NCBI GenBank assembly: GCA_963783315.1
Contig: CAWAMZ010000008.1
Location: 4,023 to 68,022, forward strand
Length of the DNA: 64,000 nucleotides
DNA from: an uncultured Bacteroidales bacterium
Lineage (GTDB): Bacteria; Bacteroidota; Bacteroidia; Bacteroidales; DASQZP01
Reading direction: 5' to 3'
The translations under genes and the position numbers were made by a program. Each line of letters begins with the position of its first letter. Position 1 is the stretch's first letter. The notes under the pieces were generated by a model. The model was given only the letters and a program-made list of their open reading frames with translations. It was not told where the DNA came from and did no database searches. Positions 3,722 through 18,142 of this stretch are shown here, in pieces.

Positions 3722-3898
3722 GATTTAGCTGACTATTTTTAGTAAAATCCTCACAAGTATACTGTATTTTAAGCAAAAAATGTAAGAAAAGAATGAAAGC
3801 GATAAGGTGACAATCCTTGCCTTTGGATTGTGCAGGGGCCCGGTGAAGGCAAGGATCACGAGCGGCATTGGGCAACGGAATCTGTGGGAGCGAGTAAT

Positions 3899-4003
3899 AC
3901 CACTGAATTACTACTGAATAAACTACTAATAAACTACTGAATAACTACTGAATAAACTACTGAATAAACTACTGAATAGACTACTGAATAAACTACCGAA
4001 CAA
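3899..4003. repeat. Tandem repeat, about 9 copies of an 11-12 nt unit ACTACTGAATAA
   Basis: Units at 3910-3921, 3922-3932, 3933-3943, 3944-3955, 3956-3967, 3968-3979, 3980-3991 and 3992-4003. A degenerate unit lies at 3899-3909. No spacers. Confidence 0.9.
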
Positions 4004-4030
4004 ACAAAAGGCCCGGACTACGCCGGGCCT
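4001..4030 (-). terminator. Rho-independent terminator of the [FeFe]-hydrogenase operon
   Basis: Minus-strand AGGCCCGG-CGTAGT-CCGGGCCT followed by TTTTGTTTG, 27 nt after the hydC stop. Confidence 0.8.
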
Positions 4031-4056
4031 CATGTCATTTATAAACCCTAAACCTA

Positions 4057-4539
4057 CTATTCATATTCTTTTAGAATCTCAGCTACTCCTTCGGGCGATA
4101 CACGACCGTAGGTCTTCTCGCCCACCAGTACCACAGGAGCCAGTCCACAGGCACCGACACATCGTAAACAGCTGATGGAAAATTTTCCATCAGCAGTAGT
4201 CTCACCAACCTGTATGCTGAGTTGTTTTTTAAACTCATCCAGTACTTTCTCGGCTCCCCTAACATAGCAGGCTGTACCGGTACAAACTGAGATCGGATAC
4301 TGTCCTTTGGGCAACATGGTAAAGAATGAATAAAACGTTACCACTCCGTATACATGGGCCACAGAAACATTAAGTTCTTCGGCCACTACTTCCTGTACTT
4401 CCGCGGGCAGGTATCCGAAATGACTCTGTACCGCATGCAGTACATTGATCAACTCACCGCCTTTGTTATTGTAGGATTTGCTGATCTCCTTTATTTTGGC
4501 TACATCTCTTTCTTTCAATTCTATTTTTACACTTGACAT
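4057..4539 (-). CDS. hydC: NuoE/HndA-like [2Fe-2S] subunit of the NAD-linked [FeFe]-hydrogenase
   Basis: 160 aa. Thioredoxin-like [2Fe-2S] Cys pattern (SVCTGTACYVRG ... CLRCVGACGLAP). Confidence 0.9.
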   Translation of the reverse strand: MSSVKIELKERDVAKIKEISKSYNNKGGELINVLHAVQSHFGYLPAEVQEVVAEELNVSVAHVYGVVTFYSFFTMLPKGQYPISVCTGTACYVRGAEKVLDEFKKQLSIQVGETTADGKFSISCLRCVGACGLAPVVLVGEKTYGRVSPEGVAEILKEYE

Positions 4540-4566
4540 GTTTAGTCCTCCACGATTGGATGGTTA

Positions 4567-6342
4567 TTAAATAAAGATTTTTTTCACACTCCTGTCAAAA
4601 TAATGTGTATGAAGCAACTCATGAGATTTTTCACTCATGGGTTTTCCCAGGAATTCTTCATATAATTTCAGGATATCGGGGTTTTCATGCGATTTGCGGA
4701 TGAGTTTGCCTTCATCTTCACGATAAATAGCAGCGGCCCTTTTGGCCAGAATTTCCGCATTTCCATGATGCAGTGGTTGTCCACCGCCGCCAATACACCC
4801 ACCAGGACAGGCCATGATCTCGATGGCATGCAGGTTGCTTTTACCAGCACGGATATCTTCCAGCAGTTTGCGTGCATTTCCAAGCCCGTGAGCGATCCCA
4901 ATATTGATCGGCAGTCCGTCAAAATCAACAGTTGCATACCGGATACCATCCATACCACGTAACTGTTTGAAATCAACATTTTCTAGCGGTTTGCCTGTAT
5001 GTATTTCATAGGCTGTACGTGTGGCAGCTTCAATCACACCACCTGTGGTGCCGAAGATAACACCTGCACCGGTTGATTCACCCATTGGCTTGTCAAAATC
5101 TTCATCCGGCAGCGACATAAAGTCGATATTGGCCTGTTTAATCAGGGCAGCCAGCTCCCTTGTAGAGATGGAATAATCAACATCAGGATTGCCGTCTACC
5201 TTGAATTCATCACGCTGACACTCGTATTTCTTGGCCAGGCAGGGCATGATGGATACTACCACCATATTTTCCCTTTTAACACCAATTTTTTCAGCAAAAT
5301 AAGTTTTCGCGATGGGGCCGAACATCTGCTGCGGTGAACGTGCTGTTGATGGTATATCCCGCATATCCGGAAATTGTTTTTCAAAGAAATTTACCCATCC
5401 CGGACAGCAGGATGTAAGAATAGGTAATTTCACAGTATTGTCACCATCCAGATGACGGGTAAGACGGTCGAGCAGTTCGGTCCCTTCTTCCATAATAGTA
5501 AGGTCGGCTGCAAAATCAGTATCAAATACAAAGTTAAATCCAAGCTGACGAAGGGCAGATACCATCTTCCCTGTAACCAGCGTTCCCGGTTCCATGCCAA
5601 ATTCTTCGCCCAGCGCAGCCCTGACGGCAGGTGCAGTCTGCACCACCACAGTTTTTGTCGGATCAGACAAAGCCCTGATTACCTTGGGGGTATGATCCAC
5701 CTCGGTGAGTGCACCGGTCGGACAAACAGCCACGCACTGTCCGCAATAAGTACAGGCAGATTTTTCGAGGTTCATTTCAAAAGGCGGAGCCACAACAGCC
5801 ATAAATCCACGATTTACTGCCGAAAGGGCCCCTACTGTCTGAAAATCGTTGCACATGGTCTCGCACCGGCGACACATGATACATTTATCCATATCTCTGA
5901 TGATGGAAGGGGAAGTATCCAGACGGTAGGTTGACATCTCTGCAAATTCATCATACGGGGTTTCCCTGATTCCCAGTTTAACAGAAAGATCCTGCAGGTC
6001 ACATTTTCCTGACTTTGCACAGGTGAGGCAGTCTTTTGGATGATCAGACAATATGAGTTCCATAACGGTACGCCGGGCATTCAGAACCCGCATTGAATGA
6101 GTCTGTACCACCATGCCCTCATAAACATTTGTGGAACAGGAGGGGGCCAGGTTACGACGGCCTTCAACTTCAACCACACAAATGCGGCAACCACCCGGTT
6201 TATTTTCAATCTTAAGGTCACCCAGGTCCATATAGCACAGCACCGGGATATCAATGCCAATGCTTTTGGCTGCTTTATATATGGTAATACCTTCTTCAAC
6301 CTGGAGTTTTTTGCCGTCTATTGTAATATTAACCAGTTTCAT
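4567..6342 (-). CDS. hydA: [FeFe]-hydrogenase catalytic subunit (M3-type, HydA/HndD)
   Basis: 591 aa. N-terminal 2Fe-2S and 4Fe-4S ferredoxin modules. H-cluster motifs TSCCPGW, MPCLAKKYE and EIMACPGGCIGGGGQP. Confidence 0.95.
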   Translation of the reverse strand: MKLVNITIDGKKLQVEEGITIYKAAKSIGIDIPVLCYMDLGDLKIENKPGGCRICVVEVEGRRNLAPSCSTNVYEGMVVQTHSMRVLNARRTVMELILSDHPKDCLTCAKSGKCDLQDLSVKLGIRETPYDEFAEMSTYRLDTSPSIIRDMDKCIMCRRCETMCNDFQTVGALSAVNRGFMAVVAPPFEMNLEKSACTYCGQCVAVCPTGALTEVDHTPKVIRALSDPTKTVVVQTAPAVRAALGEEFGMEPGTLVTGKMVSALRQLGFNFVFDTDFAADLTIMEEGTELLDRLTRHLDGDNTVKLPILTSCCPGWVNFFEKQFPDMRDIPSTARSPQQMFGPIAKTYFAEKIGVKRENMVVVSIMPCLAKKYECQRDEFKVDGNPDVDYSISTRELAALIKQANIDFMSLPDEDFDKPMGESTGAGVIFGTTGGVIEAATRTAYEIHTGKPLENVDFKQLRGMDGIRYATVDFDGLPINIGIAHGLGNARKLLEDIRAGKSNLHAIEIMACPGGCIGGGGQPLHHGNAEILAKRAAAIYREDEGKLIRKSHENPDILKLYEEFLGKPMSEKSHELLHTHYFDRSVKKIFI

Positions 6343-6360
6343 AGATTGTATATCGTTTAA

Positions 6361-8154
6361 TTAATTAACAAAAATTGCACTGAATTTACACCTCTCAACA
6401 CAGGCACCACATTTGATACACAGTGCTGTATCAATCACATGAGGCTGTTTACGGTCGCCTGAAATAGCGCCCACCGGACAGGCTCTTGCACAGGCTGTAC
6501 ACCCTACGCAGGCTTCAGCATCAATCGTATACTGCATCAATGCCTTACATTGACCTGCCACACATTTGTGATCCACCACATGTGATACATACTCATCACC
6601 AAAATTCTCCAGGGTAGATAAAACCGGGTTTGGTGAAGTCTGTCCCAGGCCGCACAATGAAGTATCTTTGATAACACCGCTGAGGTTCCTCAGCCTGTCA
6701 ATATCATCGGGTGTTCCTTTTCCCAGGGTGATCTTTTCAAGCAGTTCGTACAACCGCTTGTTACCAATACGACAGGGAGAACATTTACCACAGGATTCCT
6801 CCACGGTAAAATCAAGGTAATATTTGGCTACAGACACCATACAATCATCTTCGTCCATCACGATCATACCACCTGATCCCATCATTGATCCCACTGCAAT
6901 AAGGTTGTCATAATCGATCGCCGTTTCAAGGTGTTTTTCAGTCAGGCACCCCCCGGAAGGGCCTCCTGTCTGAACGGCTTTGAATTTTTTTCCGTTCTTA
7001 ATTCCTCCGCCGATTTCAAAAATAACCTCCCGCAATGTAGTTCCCATTGGCACTTCGATAAGCCCTACGTTGTTGATTTTACCGGCAAGTGCAAACACCT
7101 TTGTTCCTTTGCTTTTTTCTGTCCCAATGCTGCTGAACCATTCGGCTCCTTTCATATAAATAACCGGTATGTTGGCAAAGGTTTCCACATTGTTTACATT
7201 GGTTGGCTGCCCCAGATAACCCGATTCGGAAGGGAAAGGAGGTTTGACAGTAGGTTCTCCGCGCATACCCTCCATAGAGTGGATCAGGGCAGTTTCTTCT
7301 CCGCAAACAAAGGCTCCTGCTCCATAACGCAGCTCCACTTCAAAGCTAAACCCTGAACCAAAGATATCCTCGCCCAGCAAACCATACTCCCTGGCCTGCG
7401 TAATGGCAATTTTTAATCTTTTGATAGCAAGCGGGTATTCAGCCCTGATATAGATGAGTCCTTTGGAAGCGCCGATACAGTATCCGCAAATGGCCATCGC
7501 TTCGAGCACACTGTGCGGATCACCTTCCAAAATTGAACGGTCCATAAATGCGCCGGGATCACCTTCATCAGCATTACAAACCACATATTTTTGCTCAGCA
7601 ACACTCTTTCTGGAAATTTCCCATTTCAGACCGGTTGGGAAGCCACCGCCTCCCCTGCCCCTTAATCCGGATTTTTTGATAATATCAATTGACTCTTCGG
7701 GAGAATATTCGCTAAGTACCTTACCCAACGCTTCATACCCCTGACGGGCAATGTATTCATCGATATTTTCGGGGTTAATAAATCCGCAGTTGCGCAAAGC
7801 AATCCTGATCTGCTTTTTATAGAAACCCATGTGACGTGAATCACTAATATGTTCCTTCTTTTCCGGATCAGTATACAACAGGCGGTTTACTTTTCTTCCT
7901 TTAACCACATGTTCGGCAACTATTTCACCGGCATCTTCCGGTTTAACCTCTGTGTAGAAAGTATTATCCGGCATTACCTTAACAATCGGGCCCTTTTCGC
8001 AGAACCCAAAACAGCCGGTCATCACTACCTGTACCTCATTTTCCAGCCCCTTTTCCGACAGTTCATGCTTCAGGTTCTCCACCAGAGAATCACTGGCTGA
8101 TGCCCGGCAACCTGTTCCGCCACAAACCATCAAATGCATATTGTATTTAGCCAT
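6361..8154 (-). CDS. hydB: NuoF-like FMN/NAD(H)-binding subunit (HydB/HndC)
   Basis: 597 aa. GRGGGGFPTGLKWE, ESCGKCSPCR, an N-terminal Trx-like 2Fe-2S domain and C-terminal 2x[4Fe-4S] (CVGCTACARACP, CIKCGACVERC). Confidence 0.95.
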   Translation of the reverse strand: MAKYNMHLMVCGGTGCRASASDSLVENLKHELSEKGLENEVQVVMTGCFGFCEKGPIVKVMPDNTFYTEVKPEDAGEIVAEHVVKGRKVNRLLYTDPEKKEHISDSRHMGFYKKQIRIALRNCGFINPENIDEYIARQGYEALGKVLSEYSPEESIDIIKKSGLRGRGGGGFPTGLKWEISRKSVAEQKYVVCNADEGDPGAFMDRSILEGDPHSVLEAMAICGYCIGASKGLIYIRAEYPLAIKRLKIAITQAREYGLLGEDIFGSGFSFEVELRYGAGAFVCGEETALIHSMEGMRGEPTVKPPFPSESGYLGQPTNVNNVETFANIPVIYMKGAEWFSSIGTEKSKGTKVFALAGKINNVGLIEVPMGTTLREVIFEIGGGIKNGKKFKAVQTGGPSGGCLTEKHLETAIDYDNLIAVGSMMGSGGMIVMDEDDCMVSVAKYYLDFTVEESCGKCSPCRIGNKRLYELLEKITLGKGTPDDIDRLRNLSGVIKDTSLCGLGQTSPNPVLSTLENFGDEYVSHVVDHKCVAGQCKALMQYTIDAEACVGCTACARACPVGAISGDRKQPHVIDTALCIKCGACVERCKFSAIFVN

Positions 8155-8168
8155 ATTATTCTCCTCCT

Positions 8169-8576
8169 TTAAGCTTTAGTATCGGGGTCAATAGTTTCGT
8201 AATTGACAGGGATTATTCCGTCTACGAGTTCCCCGTTTTTGATATATTTTTCTATGATCTCGTCCGCCTTCCTGGTATTTACATCGCCAAATACAATTGG
8301 TTCCTGTCCGGGAAGAGTAACTTCAATAGTAGGTTCGGCATAACAATACCCCATGCACCCTGTTTGGGTAACCACTGCATCGATATTTCTTTTTTCCAGC
8401 TCATCAACCAGAAATTCCATGGTTTCTTTTGCTCCTGAAGCAATACCGCAGGTAGCCATCGCCACCTTGATCTGAACATAATTTTCAGGATGATCACTCT
8501 TTTCCCTCAGTTGCATCCGGGATTGCAGGTCGTTTTTTAACTTCCTGAGATCATCAAGGGATCTAACTTTTGCCAT
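8169..8576 (-). CDS. Small thioredoxin-like ferredoxin subunit (HndB/HydD-like)
   Basis: About 135 aa. Similar to the small fourth subunit of tetrameric Hnd/Hyd enzymes. ATG at 8576; the track start at 8582 is TTG. Confidence 0.7.
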   Translation of the reverse strand: MAKVRSLDDLRKLKNDLQSRMQLREKSDHPENYVQIKVAMATCGIASGAKETMEFLVDELEKRNIDAVVTQTGCMGYCYAEPTIEVTLPGQEPIVFGDVNTRKADEIIEKYIKNGELVDGIIPVNYETIDPDTKA

Positions 8577-8675
8577 AGTCAAACAGTTTTGTAGATTTAT
8601 AATGGATTTGTATAAATGTAATGTTAATGTGCATTAATTACTATGATATTTATCGTATTTAACAAACCAGCATTC

Positions 8676-9218
8676 TCATGCTGCCAGTGCCTGAATATTT
8701 TCTCTTATCATTTCTTTCAGAAATTTCAGTATCTCCTTTTGATTGACTGATATTTCCCCCAGCAGGTCTCTTACATCACGGGTATCAAAAATGTATGAAT
8801 CCCTGGGAGTGGTATGCTGGTATGTAAAATCAATATCAGGATTTGCTGCAACAAGCAAAACCAGTACACCTGCTATGTCACCCAGGGCAGGACGATCAAT
8901 ATGATGATATCCAAAGACTGCCGTTACCTTTGTTCCTATATCCGGGACTGACTCAATTTTAAAAGATCCCCCGGTACCTTCAGCCCGTTGCTTAAACAGG
9001 GATAAGCCCAGTCCTACCTTCCGGGTTGTTCTGGAAGTATAAAAAGGATCACTGGCCAGCTGCACTTCTGATGTTGTCATGCCTTTCCCGTTGTCATGAA
9101 TCGTAATCCTGAAAATATTATGCTCCGGATCTTCAAGAATGGCAGTTTCAATCAGGGAAGCCCCGGCAACAATTGAATTCTGCGCCAGATCAAGTATGTG
9201 CAATGCCATTTCTTTCAT
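8676..9218 (-). CDS. Small GHKL-type ATPase / kinase-like protein (HATPase_c only)
   Basis: 180 aa. N-box-like HILDLAQNSIVA, G1 DNGKGM, G2 GLGLSL. No HisKA, sensor or receiver domain. The start overlaps the PHP stop (ATGA). Confidence 0.7.
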   Translation of the reverse strand: MKEMALHILDLAQNSIVAGASLIETAILEDPEHNIFRITIHDNGKGMTTSEVQLASDPFYTSRTTRKVGLGLSLFKQRAEGTGGSFKIESVPDIGTKVTAVFGYHHIDRPALGDIAGVLVLLVAANPDIDFTYQHTTPRDSYIFDTRDVRDLLGEISVNQKEILKFLKEMIRENIQALAA

Positions 9219-9949
9219 AACAGTTCAACACTCCTTCCATTAAGGCCTGCCAGGGCCATTTTTATCTCGTTAAAACTTCTTTCTTCCAGGTGAAAACACA
9301 TCTTATTGGTACCTATATCCTGTAAATAATGTGCATCAGAATTTCTTACCAGTGTTGCATCCTGAATTCCCGGCAGGTGTACTGCTGAAGCACAGTTCTG
9401 CCCGGATATCTCAAGTGCATCGTAACTGAAATTTGCCGGAATAAAACCAAGCTGACTGAAAATACTGTTTTTGGCCTTATCAATATGTGCCGGAATACAG
9501 ATACCCTTTAACTGACGGGTCTTTTCCGCTATCTCATCAAGTCCGGCATGCAATGCTGAAATAAGCAACCTCTCTTCAGTTCTGATAATATTTTCATGTT
9601 CATCAACCTCTACCTGATAGCCAAACAGCTCCGGCCTGTTATTCACAACAGGCAAATGGTTATCCAGAAATACCTGAAAATCATTTAATATTTCCCAGTT
9701 TTCAAAGAACACCAGGCAATGCACCTCTTCCCGGGTATTCACTTCAGTGCCCATCAGAACCATAATATCCTCCCTCCCTGCCAGCTCAGCCACCACCTGA
9801 TTATGTCCGGTAGCATTATGATCAGTGATGCCGATAATATCCAGTTTTTGTTCCTTTGCACGCCTGACAATATTCACCGGACTCATCTCCAGATCTCCGC
9901 AGGGTGAGAGTACAGTATGTATATGTATGTCGGCGGTAAATTTTTTCAT
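9215..9949 (-). CDS. PHP-domain phosphoesterase
   Basis: 244 aa. PHP metal motifs HIHTVLSPCGD and ITDHN, plus later His/Asp residues. Confidence 0.75.
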   Translation of the reverse strand: MKKFTADIHIHTVLSPCGDLEMSPVNIVRRAKEQKLDIIGITDHNATGHNQVVAELAGREDIMVLMGTEVNTREEVHCLVFFENWEILNDFQVFLDNHLPVVNNRPELFGYQVEVDEHENIIRTEERLLISALHAGLDEIAEKTRQLKGICIPAHIDKAKNSIFSQLGFIPANFSYDALEISGQNCASAVHLPGIQDATLVRNSDAHYLQDIGTNKMCFHLEERSFNEIKMALAGLNGRSVELL

Positions 9950-10278
9950 TTCAGCAGGTTATAGAGTTTTCCGGCTGTTTCAAATGTCGCATCCGTTGTT
10001 CCCAGCACAGGAATTCCTTCATCACCGGCATGCTTCAGCATATCTTCCTCTGGCTGAAAACCTTTGACCAGTATTACTGAAGAGAGATCTTTCAACGATG
10101 CAATAGCCGCCACATTTTTATGAGTTTGCAGGGTTATCCAGACCTCTCCTTCACTGGCGTTTCCCATCACATCACTCAACAGGTCGGAAACATATCCTCC
10201 CTTTACTTCCCTTTCCAATCCACTCTCACCACCATATACCCGGAGATGAAGCTGTTTTACAAGATCAGATACTTTCAT
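9946..10278 (-). CDS. DRTGG-domain protein
   Basis: 110 aa. SDLLSDVMGNASEGEVWITLQTHKNVAAIASL... matches stand-alone DRTGG proteins found next to clostridial hydrogenase genes (from memory). Confidence 0.7.
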   Translation of the reverse strand: MKVSDLVKQLHLRVYGGESGLEREVKGGYVSDLLSDVMGNASEGEVWITLQTHKNVAAIASLKDLSSVILVKGFQPEEDMLKHAGDEGIPVLGTTDATFETAGKLYNLLK

Positions 10279-11650
10279 GATCCGCTCCTTTCTTATTACA
10301 ATTTTTATTCAACCGGTCCTTCCCCCAGATCTCTTCAATAATATCCAGGGCGTGCTCCGGACTCAGTTTGTGATTTATTTCCATTACTTTCTGGAGAAAA
10401 ACACAATGAGATATATTGGCATTTCCCTGTACAACATCTTCAGCAAGAGCCTGACAGGTAGGTGCTCCACATCCACCACAATCAAACCCGGGTAAAAAAC
10501 ACATGATATGCCGCTGCTTTTTCATTTTTTCCATTGCTACGCTCAGATCCTGATCGAGCTGCATTGAAGAACGGGGGTCCACTTTATCCAGCTTTATATG
10601 CTTAATCAGATAATTGCGGTAATTATCAATATCTCTGGCAGAATAACTGTCATCAGGTGTTTTTATGCTGTTTGCAGCTCTGTTTCTGAGTCTTTCAACA
10701 GTGAGAAATTTATTGCCCGAGGTAAGAATACCACCGGCACAACTTTCATCACATGCCCGCATTTCCAGAAAATCAACTCCTTTGATCTCCCCGTTTTCAA
10801 TCTTTTCCAGGAATTCAATCACGCTGTGAATGCCATCAATTGCCAGCGATCGCTTTCCTGTGGCTGAGGCCTCTCCGTGTGTAAGCGACCACAGCATTTC
10901 CCTGTCAGTCAGCTGTGAATGGTCTGCTATTTTATGATTGCCTGTTGTTCCTTTTTTAATTCGTTTATACAGCCTGTTGTATACTGAGTTCATGTTAATC
11001 ACCCCGTTAAAAGGCGACTGGTTTTCTCCTACCGGACTTTTGATAGCTGCAATTTTGGCAGCACATGGGGTGACATAAAACAAACCAATCTCTTCCTTCC
11101 TGTATCCCTCATTTAGTAATTTTTTGCGGTAATAGGCTGCAGCAATATCCAGTGGCGGCTTTAGCAATACAATATTTTCAACCAGAGATGGAAAATTCAC
11201 CTGTATCAAACGCACAACAGCCGGACAGAAAGCAGAAATAAGGGGCCGGTGTTCTCTGTGATCTTCAAGATATTTGTTTAGTTCACTGCTCAAAAGATCG
11301 ACACAGTTTTCAATCTCGTATACATGAGTAAATCCCAGTTCATAAAGGGTCTGGTATATAATTTCAATATTAATTTCTTCAGGGAACTGTCCGGTAAGTA
11401 CAGCGGGCATCAATGCAACACGGCAGGAGTAGGAGAAAATACTGCTGAAATCATCTTCTTCGACATAGATGGCTGAAACCGGACAAACACGATAACACTG
11501 TCCACAGTCGATACATTTATTATTGTATATATTGGCTTTACCATGTTTCACACGAATTGCCTCCGTTGGGCAGACACTCATGCAGTGAGCACAGCCAATA
11601 CAGTTATCTTCCTGTACTTTTAACGCATGGTGAAAAATGATCTTTTCCAT
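10265..11650 (-). CDS. [FeFe]-hydrogenase-like H-cluster-domain protein, putative sensory (HydS-like)
   Basis: 461 aa. 2x[4Fe-4S] (CIGCAHCMSVCP, CIDCGQCYRVCP). Degenerate H-cluster motifs SAFCPAV, TPCAAK and EMRACDESCAGG. C-terminal CGGCGAPTC-x16-C (Cx2Cx4Cx16C). Confidence 0.8.
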   Translation of the reverse strand: MEKIIFHHALKVQEDNCIGCAHCMSVCPTEAIRVKHGKANIYNNKCIDCGQCYRVCPVSAIYVEEDDFSSIFSYSCRVALMPAVLTGQFPEEINIEIIYQTLYELGFTHVYEIENCVDLLSSELNKYLEDHREHRPLISAFCPAVVRLIQVNFPSLVENIVLLKPPLDIAAAYYRKKLLNEGYRKEEIGLFYVTPCAAKIAAIKSPVGENQSPFNGVINMNSVYNRLYKRIKKGTTGNHKIADHSQLTDREMLWSLTHGEASATGKRSLAIDGIHSVIEFLEKIENGEIKGVDFLEMRACDESCAGGILTSGNKFLTVERLRNRAANSIKTPDDSYSARDIDNYRNYLIKHIKLDKVDPRSSMQLDQDLSVAMEKMKKQRHIMCFLPGFDCGGCGAPTCQALAEDVVQGNANISHCVFLQKVMEINHKLSPEHALDIIEEIWGKDRLNKNCNKKGADHESI

Positions 11651-11651
11651 A

Positions 11652-12080
11652 TCAGCCAGCTTGCTGTTTTAAATAATGTAATATCTGAACGCGGGTACCC
11701 GAACCCGGCTTTGATGTTACAATAAGCTCATCCGAATTCCTTTTTATATTCGGGAGCCCCATACCTGCGCCAAATCCCATCTCACGTACCTGCCGGGAAG
11801 CTGTTGAAAAGCCTTCCTGCATAGCCTGATCAATATCTGCAATACCAGGTCCTTCATCCTCAATAACGATGGTAATTTTTGCTGTATCTATATCTACATT
11901 TATAATACCGTGGTAAGCGTGAGCAACCACATTTACCTCTGCTTCGTAAAGAGCCACCACAATTTTTTTGATCAGTCTGAAATCGATATTCAATTGCTTA
12001 AGTATTTTTTTCAGATGACTTGAGGCTACACCTGCATTTGTAAAATCACCACCGTTAATCTGATATTCAAAATGCATCAT
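11652..12080 (-). CDS. RsbW/SpoIIAB-like anti-sigma-type Ser kinase fold (HATPase_c only)
   Basis: 142 aa. EAEVNVVAHAY (N box), EDEGPGI (G1), GFGAGMGLPNI (G2). Confidence 0.7.
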   Translation of the reverse strand: MMHFEYQINGGDFTNAGVASSHLKKILKQLNIDFRLIKKIVVALYEAEVNVVAHAYHGIINVDIDTAKITIVIEDEGPGIADIDQAMQEGFSTASRQVREMGFGAGMGLPNIKRNSDELIVTSKPGSGTRVQILHYLKQQAG

Positions 12081-12089
12081 GATGGTCCT

Positions 12090-12476
12090 TTAATAAAGCG
12101 GTTTAAAACCGGCACCATAGAGGATACCAGCGGTTCTGAACATTGAATAACTGCATTCCATCAAAACCATGTTATTTTCAACTGCCAGTTCAATCATTTC
12201 TTTGGTAGCATGCTTGTCCCTTACAAATACTATGTGAGTTATATCGGCCATCTCGGCAGTCCTGACTGCCTGCAGATTGGTCAAACCCGTTATCAGCATT
12301 ATTTCGCTCCCTTCTATGGTCAGCACATCACTCATGAGATCCGAAGCAAAAGCATAATTTACTGTACATTCCATATCCTCACTGCCACATATGATTCTTG
12401 CATTGAGCAGACGGGCAATCTCTCCAATTTTCATTTCCTGTTTTATTCCTGTTAAATCTGAGTTGATTTTCATCAT
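12090..12476 (-). CDS. DRTGG-domain protein (first gene of the operon)
   Basis: About 128 aa, paralogous to 9946-10278 (ASDLMSDVLTIEGSEIMLITGLTNLQAVRTAEMA). The track start at 12479 is TTG; ATGs lie at 12476 and 12473. Confidence 0.65.
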   Translation of the reverse strand: MMKINSDLTGIKQEMKIGEIARLLNARIICGSEDMECTVNYAFASDLMSDVLTIEGSEIMLITGLTNLQAVRTAEMADITHIVFVRDKHATKEMIELAVENNMVLMECSYSMFRTAGILYGAGFKPLY

Positions 12477-12559
12477 CAATTTATACTGGAGCGTTATTTA
12501 TTAAACATCAACTAATCGATTTTTTATTTTCTTATTCCAGGACAAAAGTATATATTCTT

Positions 12560-12594
12560 TTGTTATTTTAATAACATTGTTATCATAATAACAA
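12560..12594. promoter_or_regulatory. Two abutting Rex-like 18-bp palindromes upstream of the [FeFe] operon
   Basis: TTGTTATTTTAATAACAT (12560-12577) and TTGTTATCATAATAACAA (12577-12594; perfect TTGTTA-N6-TAACAA). About 85-118 bp upstream of the ATG at 12476. Confidence 0.45.
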
Positions 12595-12992
12595 TAATAC
12601 ATAATTAATCTAAATAAACGGTATATTTATTTGTTATTAAATGAATTACAGCCAGGTGTGCCCTCGCCTGATACACACCATTACACAGATTGAATGTTCC
12701 GCTTAAAATAAGGTTCTTCAAAATCGATTTTTAAGGAAACAATACCCGGAACAAATTAAAAAGAATCTATAGCTAATCTATTTTAAAACATACTTTTATT
12801 CAATCAATACCTGCATGAAACTAATATTTCACCTGTATTGCCTTAGGAAATATCTCTAAATAACTGATTCATAATTCATTTAAATTTTAAGGTATAAACA
12901 ATGAAATATATATTCCTATCTGTATATCAGCAATTTAAAATCATTCTATATTTAAAAATCATATTGGAAAATATAGAAAAGAAGTTAATTTT

Positions 12993-13010
12993 GTGTGAAA
13001 TAAATAACAG
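12993..13010. promoter_or_regulatory. Rex-like half-degenerate palindrome upstream of hoxF
   Basis: GTGTGAAATAAATAACAG (core TGTGA-N6-TAACA), 63-80 bp upstream of the hoxF ATG. Confidence 0.3.
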
Positions 13011-13072
13011 TAATTAGTAAGTCCAAGTTCCTTTTATTTTATTTTACTTCACTAAATAAAAACAATCTTTTT

Positions 13073-14887
13073 ATGGGAACCAATGTTCAAAATATCATTG
13101 AAAAATTCCACAAGGATCCTACCCGGTTAATGGACATACTCATTGATATACAGGCCGAAATCGGATATATTCCTGAAGAAGCAGTTATTCAAATCTCGCA
13201 GGAACTGGATATTTCCAGGGTGGATGTGGAACAAACAATCTCCTTTTATCATTTTTTCTCCCAGACACCCACAGGTACATTCAACATATACCTGAATAAC
13301 TCTGCAGTAGCCAATATGATGGGCAGAGCTGAGATAGCTTCTACCCTGGAAAAGGAAGCAGGCTGCAAATTCGGGGAAGTGTCTCCGGACGGACTGATTG
13401 GGTTGTTCGATACCAGCTGTATCGGTATGAATGACCAGGAACCGGCAGCCATTATCAACGGAATCATCTTTACCAAGCTTACTCCTTTCCGTATAAAAGA
13501 ACTGGTAAAAGATATTAAATCAGGCAAGAGTACGCACGACCTTTTTGTTGAAAGCTATGGAGACGGCATGAATAATTCCGAGCTGCTTCAGGCTATGGTA
13601 TATAATAATATACGGAAGAAAGGACCGGTTCTTTCAGATGATTACACCCCGGGTATTGTTATCTGGAAACATCTGCCTGCGCTAACGCCTGAAAAAGTAA
13701 TTGAAGAAATTAAATCATCCAACATCAGGGGACGGGGCGGTGCAGGATTTCCAACCGGACTAAAATGGGAATTCTGTCGCAAAGCTCCCGGAGAAAAGAA
13801 ATTCATTTTCTGCAATGCGGATGAAGGCGAACCAGGAACATTTAAAGACCGTGTAATCCTGACTGAACGGCCCAAGCTGCTGTTTGAAGGAATGGTTATC
13901 GCTGCTTATGCAGTGGGCGCATCTGAGGGTATTTTATATCTGCGCTATGAATATAAGTACCTTGAACAGTATCTTGAAGGTATTTTGCAGGGTGCACGCG
14001 ACCGGAACTTGTTGGGTAAGGACATTGGAGGTATTAAGGGATTCGATTTTGACATTCGCATTCAGTTTGGAGCTGGTGCATATGTTTGCGGAGAAGAATC
14101 TGCTCTTATCGAATCGGCAGAGGGTAAGCGTGGTGAACCAAGAGACCGTCCGCCTTTCCCCGTTGAAAAAGGTTACCTGGGCTGTCCTACTGTTGTAAAC
14201 AATGTAGAAACCCTTTGTTCAGCAGTAAAAGTAATGCTTTATGGTGGCAACTGGTATCGTTCATTTGGGACCAGTGATTCTACAGGCACAAAGGTTTTGA
14301 GCATTTCAGGTGACTGCAAATATCCCGGCGTCTATGAAGTTGAGTGGGGATTCAGTGTCAGGAGCATACTTGAAATGGTTGGCGCTGTGCAGGACGAGGT
14401 ACAGGCTGTGCAGGTTGGAGGACCATCAGGGGCTGTGATTGCACCCAATGAATTCGACCGTACTTTATGCTATACCGATCTTTCTACCGGAGGGTCACTG
14501 ATTATTATCGGAAAACAACGTGATCTGCTCAAAGACATTGTCCTGAATTTTTCAGAATTTTTCATGGAGGAATCCTGTGGTTCATGTGTGCCTTGCCGGA
14601 CACTCACAGTGCTATATCGCGACACTCTGAAGAAAATTGTAGATGGCAGGGGTACCCGTAAAGATGTAGAAGACATGATCAGTTGGGGAAAGATTATGAA
14701 AGCAAACAGATGTGGACTCGGACAAACGGCTGCCAACCCGGTCCTGTCCAGCATTAAAAACTTCAGGGAACTTTATGAAGAAAGATTACTGCCCGGCAAT
14801 GGATTTGAAAGTAATTTTGATCTCGAAGAGGCAGTAAAGGAATCCTGCGAAGTTACCCACCGAAGTCCAATCATTAAAGAAGCATAA
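13073..14887 (+). CDS. hoxF: NAD-reducing [NiFe]-hydrogenase diaphorase subunit HoxF (NuoE-like plus NuoF-like)
   Basis: 604 aa. GRGGAGFPTGLKWE, ESCGSCVPCR and an N-terminal NuoE-like domain. Confidence 0.9.
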   Translation: MGTNVQNIIEKFHKDPTRLMDILIDIQAEIGYIPEEAVIQISQELDISRVDVEQTISFYHFFSQTPTGTFNIYLNNSAVANMMGRAEIASTLEKEAGCKFGEVSPDGLIGLFDTSCIGMNDQEPAAIINGIIFTKLTPFRIKELVKDIKSGKSTHDLFVESYGDGMNNSELLQAMVYNNIRKKGPVLSDDYTPGIVIWKHLPALTPEKVIEEIKSSNIRGRGGAGFPTGLKWEFCRKAPGEKKFIFCNADEGEPGTFKDRVILTERPKLLFEGMVIAAYAVGASEGILYLRYEYKYLEQYLEGILQGARDRNLLGKDIGGIKGFDFDIRIQFGAGAYVCGEESALIESAEGKRGEPRDRPPFPVEKGYLGCPTVVNNVETLCSAVKVMLYGGNWYRSFGTSDSTGTKVLSISGDCKYPGVYEVEWGFSVRSILEMVGAVQDEVQAVQVGGPSGAVIAPNEFDRTLCYTDLSTGGSLIIIGKQRDLLKDIVLNFSEFFMEESCGSCVPCRTLTVLYRDTLKKIVDGRGTRKDVEDMISWGKIMKANRCGLGQTAANPVLSSIKNFRELYEERLLPGNGFESNFDLEEAVKESCEVTHRSPIIKEA

Positions 14888-14890
14888 ATC

Positions 14891-15604
14891 ATGAATAAAC
14901 TGATTAAACTTAATATCGACGGCAAGGAATGCATGGCTACCAAAGGGCAGTATATTGTTGAAGCGGCTCGTGAAAATGACATTTACATTCCAACCCTTTG
15001 CAATATTCCAAATCTGAAACCACGCGGAGCCTGCCGTATCTGTACTGTAAATGTAAACGGCAAACCCATGACATCCTGTACAACTCCCGTTTCCGAAGGA
15101 ATGGTAGTAGAAACAGCCCTGCCTGAGATTATTGATCTAAGAAAATCAATTGTAGAACTGTTGTTTGTGGAAGGAAATCACTTTTGTCCTTCTTGCGAAA
15201 GAAGCGGAAATTGTGAATTGCAGGCCCTGGCCTACCGTTTCAGAATGATGGTGCCCAGGTTTCCTTACCGGTTTCAGCAGCGAAACATCGAAGCTAATAA
15301 TTCAAAACTTATCAAGGATCATAACCGCTGCATTCTTTGTAAACGCTGTATCAGAGCAATCAAGGACGATGAAGGCAGGGGTATCTTTGCCTTCAAACGG
15401 AGAGGACATCAGGTAGAGATCAGTATTGATCCTGAACTGGCAAAGAACCTGACAGATGAGCTTGCCGACAGGGCCGCCGAAATTTGTCCAGTGGGAGCTT
15501 TGCTGAGGAAGGAAAAAGGATATGAGATCCCGATTGGGGAACGAAAATATGACAAAAATCCCATTGGAAGTGAAATAGAAAAATTCGCACATTCAAAACC
15601 ATAA
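14891..15604 (+). CDS. hoxU: Diaphorase Fe-S subunit HoxU (NuoG N-terminal-like)
   Basis: 237 aa. 2Fe-2S (CNIPNLKPRGACRIC...C) and 4Fe-4S motifs (CPSCERSGNC, CILCKRC). Confidence 0.9.
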   Translation: MNKLIKLNIDGKECMATKGQYIVEAARENDIYIPTLCNIPNLKPRGACRICTVNVNGKPMTSCTTPVSEGMVVETALPEIIDLRKSIVELLFVEGNHFCPSCERSGNCELQALAYRFRMMVPRFPYRFQQRNIEANNSKLIKDHNRCILCKRCIRAIKDDEGRGIFAFKRRGHQVEISIDPELAKNLTDELADRAAEICPVGALLRKEKGYEIPIGERKYDKNPIGSEIEKFAHSKP

Positions 15605-15616
15605 AAAAGAATTATC

Positions 15617-16165
15617 ATGAGCAAAGCTATAGTTGCGACTACCTCTCTGGCCGGATGTTTCGGATGTCACATGTCTCTGCTGGACATTGACGAGAAAATT
15701 CTTGATCTTATTGAACTGGTTGAATTTAACAAATCCCCAATCAATGATATCAAGACATTTACCAAAGATTGTGATATTGGCCTTATTGAGGGAGGTTGTT
15801 GCAATTCAGAGAATGTACACGTATTAAAAGAATTTCGTAAAAGGTGTAAGATCCTGATTTCGGTAGGTGAATGTGCAATAATGGGTGGATTACCGGCCAT
15901 GCGCAACGGCATCCCGGTCAGGGAATGTCTGGAAGAAGCATACCTGAATGGCCCTTCGGTTCTGTCTAATACAGAAAAAATCATGCCCAATGATGAAGAG
16001 CTGCCCATGATACTGGACAAAGTATATCCCTGTCATGAGCTGGTAAAGATCGATTACTTTCTGCCAGGCTGTCCTCCCAGAGCCGGATTGATCTGGGACG
16101 CCTTAACCGCCCTGCTTACCGGCAAAGAGATGGAGTTACCCTATGAAGTTGTTAAATTTGATTAA
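15617..16165 (+). CDS. hoxY: [NiFe]-hydrogenase small subunit HoxY
   Basis: 182 aa. GCFGCHMS proximal-cluster motif, later GECA and GCPP. Confidence 0.9.
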   Translation: MSKAIVATTSLAGCFGCHMSLLDIDEKILDLIELVEFNKSPINDIKTFTKDCDIGLIEGGCCNSENVHVLKEFRKRCKILISVGECAIMGGLPAMRNGIPVRECLEEAYLNGPSVLSNTEKIMPNDEELPMILDKVYPCHELVKIDYFLPGCPPRAGLIWDALTALLTGKEMELPYEVVKFD

Positions 16166-16176
16166 TTGAAAGAACA

Positions 16177-17628
16177 ATGGCACAAAAGATTACAATAGAA
16201 CCGGTTACCAGAGTTGAAGGACACGGTAAAGTAACCATACATCTGGATGACCAGCACCGTATCACCCAGACAAGACTACATATCGTTGAATTCCGGGGTT
16301 TTGAAAGGTTTATCCAGGGGCGTCCTTACTGGGAAGCTCCCGTACTGGTTCAAAGACTGTGCGGGATTTGCCCGGTCAGCCATCACCTGGCATCCGCCAA
16401 AGCAATGGATGTGATAGTAGGAGCCGGCACTGGTGACGGCCTTACTCCTACCGGAGAGAAAATGCGACGACTGATGCATTATGGCCAGATATTTCAGTCA
16501 CATGCGCTTCATTTTTTCCATCTTGCCTCTCCTGATCTCCTATTTGGTATCGACAGTGATCCGGCTACCAGAAATGTGATTGGGGTCGCAATGAAACACA
16601 AAGACCTGGCCGTTCAGGGGGTCATGATGCGTAAATTCGGTCAGGAAATAATTGAAGCAACCGCAGGAAAGAAAATTCATGGCACCGGAGCCATTCCAGG
16701 GGGCATCAATAAACACCTTACCAAAGAGGAAAAGGATAAATTCTTAAATGGTCCGGATCCGATGAACATTGATAAGATGATTGAATGGTCCCAGGGTGCA
16801 CTTGCTTTCTTTAAGGAATACCACAAGCAAAATAAAGCCGTAATTGACCAGTTTTTTGAATTTCCTTCCAGCTATCTCAGTCTGGTCAGGAAAGATGGAG
16901 CACTTGACCTGTATCATGGTGTGATAAGGGCAGTTGACAGCGAAGGAAAGAAAATTCTTCACGATGTTGACTATCAAAACTACCTTGATTATATTGATGA
17001 AGAAGTACGGTCCTGGAGCTACATGAAATTTCCGTATCTGAAACAACTTGGAAAAAAGGATGGCTCCTACACAGTAGGTCCGCTTGCCCGTATGAACACT
17101 ATTGATTTTATTCCATCACCGCTGGCTCAGAAAGAGTTTGAAATTTTCAGGTCCTATGCAAACGGCAAACCAAGCAATCGTCCGATGCACCAGCACTGGG
17201 CCAGGCTGATCGAAATGCTTCATTCGGCAGAAATGATGAAGCAATTATTGAATGACCAGGATCTGTTAACCGGCGAACTGGTTACCAAAGGAATAAAAAC
17301 AAATGAGGGTGTTGGACTCCTGGAAGCGCCACGGGGTACTCTTTTCCATCATTACCGGATCAATCAGGATGACCAGATTGAGATGGCCAACCTGATTGTA
17401 TCTACTACCAATAACAATGAAGCCATGAATAAGGCAGTCAACATGGTAGCTAATAAAACAATGACAGGAGAGGCTAAAATCACTGAAGGAATGATGAATG
17501 CGGTAGAAGTAGCCATCCGTTCTTATGACCCGTGTTTAAGCTGTGCCACACATGCACTTGGCCAAATGCCGCTGGAAATATCTCTCTTTAACAGCAGGGA
17601 CGAATTAATTGATGTCCGCAGAAAATAA
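16177..17628 (+). CDS. hoxH: [NiFe]-hydrogenase large subunit HoxH (group 3d-like)
   Basis: 483 aa. N-terminal RLCGICPVSHH and C-terminal DPCLSCATH, followed by a cleavable extension. Confidence 0.95.
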   Translation: MAQKITIEPVTRVEGHGKVTIHLDDQHRITQTRLHIVEFRGFERFIQGRPYWEAPVLVQRLCGICPVSHHLASAKAMDVIVGAGTGDGLTPTGEKMRRLMHYGQIFQSHALHFFHLASPDLLFGIDSDPATRNVIGVAMKHKDLAVQGVMMRKFGQEIIEATAGKKIHGTGAIPGGINKHLTKEEKDKFLNGPDPMNIDKMIEWSQGALAFFKEYHKQNKAVIDQFFEFPSSYLSLVRKDGALDLYHGVIRAVDSEGKKILHDVDYQNYLDYIDEEVRSWSYMKFPYLKQLGKKDGSYTVGPLARMNTIDFIPSPLAQKEFEIFRSYANGKPSNRPMHQHWARLIEMLHSAEMMKQLLNDQDLLTGELVTKGIKTNEGVGLLEAPRGTLFHHYRINQDDQIEMANLIVSTTNNNEAMNKAVNMVANKTMTGEAKITEGMMNAVEVAIRSYDPCLSCATHALGQMPLEISLFNSRDELIDVRRK

Positions 17629-17632
17629 TACA

Positions 17633-18142
17633 ATGGAGCATAGTGATCGCATACTGGTATATGGTTATGGCAATCCGGGCCGGCAGGATGACGGACTGGC
17701 TGCAGAATTGATAAGACGTCTGGATGACTGGAAGCACAAACATTTTTTGGCTTCCGCCATTTCCACCGATTGTAATTATCAGTTGAATATTGAAGATGCA
17801 GCCGTAATATTTCCTTATGGCCTGGTAGTATTTGCCGATGCATCAGATGAGGAAATTGACGATTTCAAATTAACCCCTATCACTCCGGATTCTGATATTT
17901 CATTTACTATGCATGCGGTTAATCCTGCCTATGTTGTGAATTTATGCAGGGAAATATATGGAAACGACCCTGAAGCATACCTGTTACACATTAAAGGTTA
18001 TCAATGGGAGATGAAAGAAGAACTGACGCAGAAAGCAGTTGCCAGCTTAGATAAAGCTTTCGACTTTTTAATTAGCTTCCTGCAGGAAAAAAGAGGTATT
18101 ACCAGATGCTGTCATGAACGGAAACAGCAACAAAGTTTATAA
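17633..18142 (+). CDS. hoxW: Hydrogenase maturation endopeptidase HoxW
   Basis: ILVYGYGNPGRQDDGLA is the HybD/HoxW signature. Alternative starts at 17609 (TTG) and 17612 (ATG) overlap hoxH. 17633 lies just after the hoxH stop. Confidence 0.8.
   Translation: MEHSDRILVYGYGNPGRQDDGLAAELIRRLDDWKHKHFLASAISTDCNYQLNIEDAAVIFPYGLVVFADASDEEIDDFKLTPITPDSDISFTMHAVNPAYVVNLCREIYGNDPEAYLLHIKGYQWEMKEELTQKAVASLDKAFDFLISFLQEKRGITRCCHERKQQQSL

Follow-up and report, generated by a model that had tools for sequence, protein, structure and literature searches.

What is a second, unusual hydrogenase-like protein doing in an operon that also encodes a canonical [FeFe] hydrogenase? The question is raised by a 64,000-nucleotide stretch of contig CAWAMZ010000008.1 (assembly GCA_963783315.1) from an uncultured Bacteroidales bacterium, which we analyzed as one window (C8:4023-68022 of the genome that we designate G000). 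The gene at window positions 10265..11650 on the minus strand encodes a protein of 461 residues that keeps the cysteine ligands of the H-cluster, while hydA of group A6 (4567-6342, minus strand), encoded 4 kb downstream, has its canonical motifs intact. An initial annotation had noted that the upstream protein lacks the proton-relay cysteine and methionine residues of its neighbor, and had read it as a slow or sensory H-cluster protein. That reading agrees with the literature on subclass M2e, or Group D, in which the sensory role is termed "putative" (PMC8163306, PMC10407848, PMC13104023). Based on the open reading frame, Pfam domains, signature residues and a phylogenetic tree, we consider it about 80% probable that the gene is hydS and that its product is a Group D (M2e) putative hydrogen-sensing [FeFe] hydrogenase. 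This HydS is an ordinary Bacteroidales member of its family, one more orthologue in a family that has been described and partly characterized, and the only real oddity of the case is that the maturases HydE, HydF, and HydG are absent.

The domain order of HydS was read from its Pfam matches, and the window coordinates of its motifs were verified by translation. The N-terminal F-domain (11465..11620, minus strand, as are all parts of hydS) has two [4Fe-4S] motifs (C17, C20, C23, C27 and C46, C49, C52, C56), both of the form CxxCxxCxxxCP (residues 17-28 and 46-57) and matched by the Pfam Fer4 dicluster at residues 11-62. It is followed by the H-domain (Fe_hyd_lg_C, residues 87-307, 10730..11392, Pfam E 2e-22), with C142, C196, C300, and C304 as H-cluster ligands, and a Foldseek search with the HydS model returned [FeFe] hydrogenases only (E about 1e-15, template modeling (TM) score about 0.6). 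The C-terminal Cx2Cx4Cx16C cluster, which the initial annotation had put forward as a putative additional Fe-S site, has exactly this spacing (C391, C394, C399, and C416, with D390 preceding the first cysteine and E404-D405 within the site; 10397..10495). Its identification as a [4Fe-4S] site is backed by a Pfam match of PF04060 (FeS) to residues 386-418 (E 5.7e-13), by alignment with the M2e protein TamHydS of Thermoanaerobacter mathranii, and by a match to the [4Fe-4S] site of RnfB in PDB 9eri_B. The remaining residues, 419-461 (10265..10396, then the stop codon), form a tail specific to the Bacteroidota clade in which W442 and G443 are invariant; the matches of more distant representatives to our HydS stop near residue 420. 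No PAS, HisKA, or PP2C domain was detected in HydS by Pfam at E-values up to 0.01, and only ~40 residues lie beyond the cluster site. The lack of a PAS domain had thus been recognized correctly, but the accompanying statement that described HydS proteins carry one is out of date, as TamHydS is a HydS without PAS (PMC8163306).

The substitutions in the active-site motifs were borne out in proper alignments (BLASTP, MAFFT, and the alignment with TamHydS), with the relay cysteine and both methionines indeed replaced. In the L1 motif, SAFCPAV (11216..11236), BLASTP against the neighboring HydA pairs TSCCPGW with the HydS sequence, so that F141 occupies the position of the relay cysteine (C299 of CpI, A137 of TamHydS) and the ligand C142 is kept. 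The same comparison pairs MPCLAK with the L2 motif TPCAAK (11054..11071), placing T194 at the position of Met353 (S191 in TamHydS), with the cysteine and lysine retained. In the L3 motif, EMRACDESCAGGILTS (10718..10765), MAFFT pairs EIMACPGGC with EMRACDESC, which retains C300 and C304, places R298 at the position of Met497 (L291 in TamHydS) and makes E296 the equivalent of TamHydS E289. The Group D-specific alternative proton path corresponds to W254-S-L-T257-H-G-E260 ... D272 (10835..10891), in which T257, E260, and D272 are the equivalents of TamHydS S249, E252, and D265, as judged from alignment, family conservation, and the published path (PMC10407848). Around the C-terminal cluster, D390/C391 correspond to TamHydS D378/C379, E404/D405 to E392/D393, and H415 to D403. 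The TamHydS coding sequence available to us (PMC13104023, supplementary information (SI) Table S1) was damaged by optical character recognition (OCR) and contained frame errors, and these equivalences were obtained by aligning it piecewise with tblastn.

These features are those by which the group has been defined. Land et al. (2020) delimited M2e, or Group D, by the absence of PAS, the lack of conservation of C299, and a C-terminal Cx2Cx4Cx16C, and described a hydroxyl residue at the Met353 position as a well-conserved property of the subclass, a trait to which T194 conforms; they further found that the M2e gene lies upstream of the gene for a group A hydrogenase of the bifurcating type and adjoins one for a histidine-kinase-like ATPase (PMC8163306). 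A proton path specific to Group D, through E252, E289, S249, and D265, was reported by Cabotaje et al. (2023; PMC10407848), and conserved charged residues around the clusters, D378, E392, D393, and D403, by Schumann et al. (2026; PMC13104023). Among 117 distant representatives of the family, the path residues and the charged residues are conserved as these papers describe, while the group A and Group C-like paralogues of G000 have no equivalents of E260 and D272 and share one glutamate of the path. HydS scored far below the NCBIfam cut-offs for group A (TIGR02512, 82 bits, cut-off 406) and group B1 (TIGR04105, 91 bits, cut-off 450). In a maximum-likelihood tree built from 69 representatives of the family together with the five other H-domain proteins of G000, from which TamHydS was left out owing to its OCR-damaged sequence, HydS fell in a Bacteroidota clade (Shimodaira-Hasegawa-like approximate likelihood ratio test (SH-aLRT) support 100) nested within the M2e family (96); that family is sister to three Group C-like paralogues, kinase-fused and with PAS-like tails (97), with group A as the outgroup. 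The placement proposed by the initial annotation as a check on its reading therefore puts HydS outside groups A and B1 by score and inside M2e by tree, and we regard its membership in Group D as well supported.

The cysteine pattern is also not a matter of chance, because the eight cysteines of the H-cluster and the C-terminal site are kept in all 120 close homologues, apart from a single serine at the C394 position; of the 117 more distant representatives that are full-length, at least 115 likewise retain them. The close homologues are similarly uniform at the three substituted positions, with Phe at F141 in 116 (Tyr in the other 4), Thr at T194 in 118 and Arg at R298 in 119. In a diverse set of 127 representatives of clusters at 50% identity, which includes the 117, the C299 position is more variable (A 40, S 24, T 14, F 19), S and T predominate at the M353 position, and the M497 position holds R in 33 and L in 17, with N, Y, Q, and M also found. 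As judged from these alignments, the Phe141/Thr194/Arg298 triad is a signature of the Bacteroidota branch that falls inside the natural variation of Group D and is not unique to this gene. The triad is present also in relatives that have the maturases and so does not track maturase loss.

We considered whether the Phe and Arg might mark a dead pseudo-enzyme, and rejected this based on the invariant ligand cysteines, the L2 lysine and the Group D proton path, on the occurrence of the triad in maturase-bearing genomes, and on the strong purifying selection on HydS between G000 and its congener, the assembly of which is fragmented (nonsynonymous rate dN 0.054, synonymous rate dS 1.6, ratio 0.033). 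We know of no characterized [FeFe] hydrogenase with this Phe/Arg pocket. The Bacteroidota Group D pocket, with Phe near the amine of the azadithiolate (ADT) and Arg at the Met497 position, thus offers a natural variant for studies of second-sphere tuning of the H-cluster, and work on TamHydS has shown its active-site pocket to be sensitive to alterations at precisely these positions (PMC11803613).

Of the described proteins, TamHydS (PMC8163306, PMC10407848, PMC11803613, PMC13104023) is the same as our HydS in domain order and absence of PAS, in keeping the four H-cluster cysteines with the relay cysteine gone, in having a hydroxyl residue for Met353 and the alternative proton path, and in its gene's position upstream of HydABC genes of the bifurcating type and adjacent to a gene for a histidine-kinase-like ATPase. 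The two differ in sequence, being only ~31% identical over the stretch of the OCR-read sequence that aligns best, with Phe for Ala at C299, Thr for Ser at M353, Arg for Leu at M497, His for Asp before the last cluster cysteine, and ~25 additional C-terminal residues in our protein. They differ also in their hosts, a member of the Bacteroidota without HydEFG as opposed to a member of the Firmicutes, and in their neighbors, which here are two DRTGG-domain proteins, two GHKL ATPases and a PHP-family protein, and in T. mathranii an ATPase and an AraC regulator. Bacteroidota members of Group D are already on record: the 70 enzymes listed in SI Table S6 of PMC13104023 include those of Anaerophaga thermohalophila, Parabacteroides, Odoribacter, Proteiniphilum, Marinilabilia, and Alkaliflexus. 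The locus of A. thermohalophila DSM 12881 (L076) has a HydS that is 54% identical to ours and an identical gene order, and the same arrangement has been noted for ING2E5A_0849 of Petrimonas mucosa, a putative H2 sensor bearing the HydDB name "[FeFe] Group C1, histidine kinase-linked" (PMC7768429). The novelty implied by the initial annotation in writing of a "different output architecture" therefore does not stand, as the architecture was described from 2010 to 2020 and TamHydS has been characterized biochemically. In general the Bacteroidota orthologues are 50-60% identical to our HydS and have the same Phe/Thr/Arg and the same ten-gene order, with no difference of substance. To our knowledge, none of these Bacteroidota orthologues has been studied biochemically.

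The ten genes lie on the minus strand. The first encodes a DRTGG-domain protein (12090..12479) whose Pfam match is weak (19 bits) but which has an invariant SDLMSDVL motif and a conserved position. It is followed by a gene for a SpoIIAB/RsbW-like GHKL ATPase or kinase (11652..12080; Pfam HATPase_c_2), whose stop codon lies 1 nt before the start of hydS. The end of hydS is overlapped by 14 nt by the gene for a second DRTGG-domain protein (9946..10278; Pfam DRTGG, 28.8 bits), after which come genes for a PHP-family phosphoesterase (9215..9949; Pfam PHP), a candidate phosphatase, and for a second GHKL ATPase that by Pfam has HATPase_c only and no HisKA (8676..9218). These first six genes are separated by gaps of at most 9 nt or overlap. 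Downstream are genes for a small thioredoxin-like [2Fe-2S] ferredoxin (HydD-like, 8169..8582), hydB (6361-8154), hydA, and hydC (4057-4539); the hydBAC segment (4057..8154) encodes an NADH-linked, bifurcating-type [FeFe] hydrogenase (NCBIfam NF040763, 906 bits, cut-off 765). An intrinsic terminator follows hydC (4008..4031) and is the only strong one on the minus strand from 3800 to 13200. Among the best 80 related loci, all from Bacteroidota, the order DRTGG, GHKL ATPase, HydS, DRTGG, PHP, GHKL ATPase, HydD-like ferredoxin, HydB, HydA, HydC is identical in all 80 as far as the contigs reach. Both GHKL proteins retain the N-box, G1, and G2 motifs for ATP binding, and the metal-binding motifs of the PHP protein do not vary across 78 sequences (our own and 77 orthologues). 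A motif of the form SDL[ML]SDV[LM] is invariant in both DRTGG proteins, in ~75-80 orthologues of each. Divergent from the operon, and sharing with it an intergenic region of 593 bp, is a set of genes for an NAD-linked [NiFe] hydrogenase (HoxF, HoxU, HoxY, HoxH, and an endopeptidase; window 13073-18142, plus strand); ~20 of the 80 loci have, in place of the Hox set, a second HydCBA set upstream.

That the DRTGG and GHKL neighbors act together with HydS is indicated by natural fusions, a Rosetta-stone form of evidence: a DRTGG domain is fused C-terminally to HydS in P0146, P0174, P0213, and P0269 and N-terminally in P0178 and P0205, and a GHKL domain is fused N-terminally in P0171. The conserved and translationally coupled DRTGG/GHKL/HydS/DRTGG/PHP/GHKL set, taken with these fusions, names concrete candidate signaling partners for HydS. 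A search for literature linking DRTGG proteins with hydrogenases found nothing relevant. The set is reminiscent of SpoIIAB/SpoIIAA/SpoIIE-type modules, which operate by partner switching, in having a small GHKL protein resembling a serine kinase, an opposing phosphoesterase, and adjoining small single-domain partners. It is unlike them in having no STAS partner and no PP2C phosphatase, with DRTGG and PHP proteins in their places, and no sigma factor in the operon. The NCBIfam spIIAB score of the first GHKL protein (69 bits) falls short of the family's cut-off (135) and denotes a likeness to these modules, not membership.

From this arrangement we infer a response to H2, a phosphorylation, and a target for it, as follows. 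By analogy with TamHydS, HydS would bind an H-cluster and turn over H2 slowly and with high affinity, a Km for H2 near 0.1 mM being characteristic of Group D, and stabilization of its reduced state (Hred in the notation of the TamHydS papers) would let the state of HydS report the level of H2, as opposed to HydS adding to the flux. Based on synteny, translational coupling, and gene fusions, the two DRTGG proteins and the SpoIIAB-like GHKL kinase would receive the signal through protein-protein contact, with the PHP phosphoesterase acting as the opposing phosphatase, and the signaling module may tune the activity or the expression of the co-transcribed HydABC(D).

A number of points weigh against HydS being a Group D hydrogen sensor that works in this manner. 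No DNA-binding output protein is encoded in the operon. No characterized [FeFe] hydrogenase is known to have a Phe adjoining the ADT amine and an Arg at the Met497 position. Of the charged residues near the C-terminal cluster, D390, E404, and D405 are present, but the equivalent of TamHydS D403 is His415 in our protein and in the Bacteroidota clade, while it is Asp in 87 of the 117 distant representatives. The AlphaFold2 model of HydS is of moderate quality (pLDDT 72.9, from an alignment of 19 sequences) and weak near the cluster-binding loops, and the PDB sequence and fold matches were confined to hydrogenases of group A and of the CbA5H type and to RnfB, with no structure of a Group C or D [FeFe] hydrogenase. 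Even for TamHydS the sensory role is putative, and the redox state of its C-terminal cluster was unchanged with H2 (PMC13104023). Lastly, genome G000 (5.5 Mb in 37 contigs, free of N runs, 98.9% complete and with six H-domain genes) yielded no HMM (hidden Markov model) match above cut-off for HydE, HydF, or HydG, and neither a HydF-tetramer nor a BATS domain. As the [2Fe] subsite, which H2 sensing requires, is made through HydEFG in the canonical route, their absence lowers our confidence in canonical H2 sensing by this protein.

Searches of G000 by tblastn and phmmer with maturases from relatives of the same order gave only matches to GTPase P-loops, and the three proteins were not found either in the congener G001, which has a fragmented assembly. 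In the closed genome G030 (L119) hydG follows hydC of the same operon, and in G004 (L120) it comes last in the second hydrogenase cluster; the two positions are empty in G000. We surveyed 151 sampled genomes of the order, each at least 95% complete, and found HydS in 51, of which 41 have HydG. The ten without it (G000, G001, G003, G045, G048, G090, G102, G117, G133, and G140) belong to eight genera, and nine of them also have no HydE or HydF; one, G102, is a single contig. In three genera both sampled members agree; in one of these, g19, the second member, G019, has other H-domain genes and no HydS. We rejected an assembly gap as the cause of the missing maturases, given that three normally dispersed genes are jointly absent, that the same is true of nine of the ten HydG-less genomes including the one in a single contig, and that the syntenic hydG sites are empty. 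Most archaea that bear [FeFe] hydrogenases, and some eukaryotes, are also without the maturases, and for archaea and protists another pathway has been put forward (PMC11216029). We found no papers on the absence of HydEFG in Bacteroidales. As to other radical SAM enzymes, a BATS domain was not found anywhere in G000 (best E 0.15) and enzymes of the BioB and ThiH types seem to be missing, which hints at auxotrophy for biotin and thiamine.

It is conceivable, and we suggest it tentatively, that about one-fifth of the Group D HydS-bearing Bacteroidales lineages, that of G000 among them, have lost all three maturases and yet keep HydS, canonical HydABC, and other H-domain proteins under purifying selection, either by obtaining the [2Fe] subsite from a HydEFG-independent source or by functioning without it. 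If this holds, such lineages would bear on alternative H-cluster biogenesis, and the finding would matter more than the gene itself. For HydS in particular, the corresponding alternative is that it remains a Group D protein by descent but either receives its cofactor by a HydEFG-independent route or works without the [2Fe] subsite, as a sensor of Fe-S redox or ferredoxin state or as a scaffold of the kinase module. The failure to find HydEFG in G000 and G001, the two empty syntenic positions, the pattern across the 51 HydS-bearing genomes, the low dN/dS despite the missing maturases, and the precedent in archaea and some eukaryotes all speak for this alternative. Against it stand the retention of the four H-cluster cysteines, the L2 lysine, and the Group D proton path, which would be needless without a [2Fe] site, the canonical HydA of the same operon, which also needs the cofactor, and the presence of the triad in HydEFG-bearing relatives, by which the triad is not linked to maturase loss; in addition, the assemblies may be incomplete, that of G001 being fragmented. 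On balance we consider this alternative rather unlikely and retain the interpretation of HydS as a Group D putative hydrogen sensor.

The close linkage to the hydrogenase genes could instead be explained if HydS were a slow catalytic or electron-entry subunit of the HydABC(D) complex, serving, for example, as an additional site for H2 or as a partner that tunes its redox properties. In keeping with this, hydS would share its transcript with hydD, hydB, hydA, and hydC, there being no strong terminator between them, its three accessory clusters would suit electron transfer, and TamHydS catalyzes the interconversion of protons and H2 in both directions (PMC8163306). The rate of TamHydS, ~0.1 μmol H2 per mg per min, is however far below that of group A enzymes (PMC10407848), the solved HydABC complexes (8a6t, 7p5h, and 7q4w) contain no such subunit, and the tightest coupling and the fusions tie HydS to the GHKL and DRTGG proteins and not to HydA, HydB, or HydC, leading us to view a role as a HydABC(D) subunit as improbable.

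A reading of HydS as a PAS-linked sensor of Group C (the TmHydS type), or as a degenerate enzyme of group A or B, is very improbable: the C-terminal four-cysteine site and the loss of the relay cysteine are common to Group C, and HydDB-based annotation gave the Petrimonas homologue its "Group C1" name, but HydS has none of the PAS, HisKA, or PP2C domains and has every element of the M2e definition, the kinase-fused and PAS-like-tail paralogues of G000 group in a clade of their own and have no E260 and D272 equivalents, and the scores against the A and B1 families are far under their cut-offs. Both TmHydS of Thermotoga maritima (Group C/M2f) and the paralogues encoded by a second hydrogenase cluster of G000 on contig C26 do resemble our Group D HydS in their N-terminal pair of [4Fe-4S] motifs, four-cysteine site, H-domain without the relay cysteine and methionines, and linkage to HydABC. 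The fused output of Group C is a PAS domain, and that of the C26 paralogues is HisKA plus HATPase or, alternatively, a neighboring PP2C, whereas our HydS has no fused output; it has the Group D proton-path residues that the C26 paralogues lack and is in a separate clade of the tree.

The second hydrogenase cluster itself (C26:12784-29088, outside the window) has genes for HydC, HydB, and a HydA-like protein whose SSNCPAW motif has Asn in place of the relay cysteine. Flanking it are a gene for a HydS fused to HisKA plus HATPase, accompanied by two response regulators, and a gene for a divergent HydS of 618 residues with a long C-terminal tail, followed by one for a PP2C/SpoIIE-like phosphatase. 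A further HydS-like protein of 479 residues, with a coiled-coil tail, is also present in G000.

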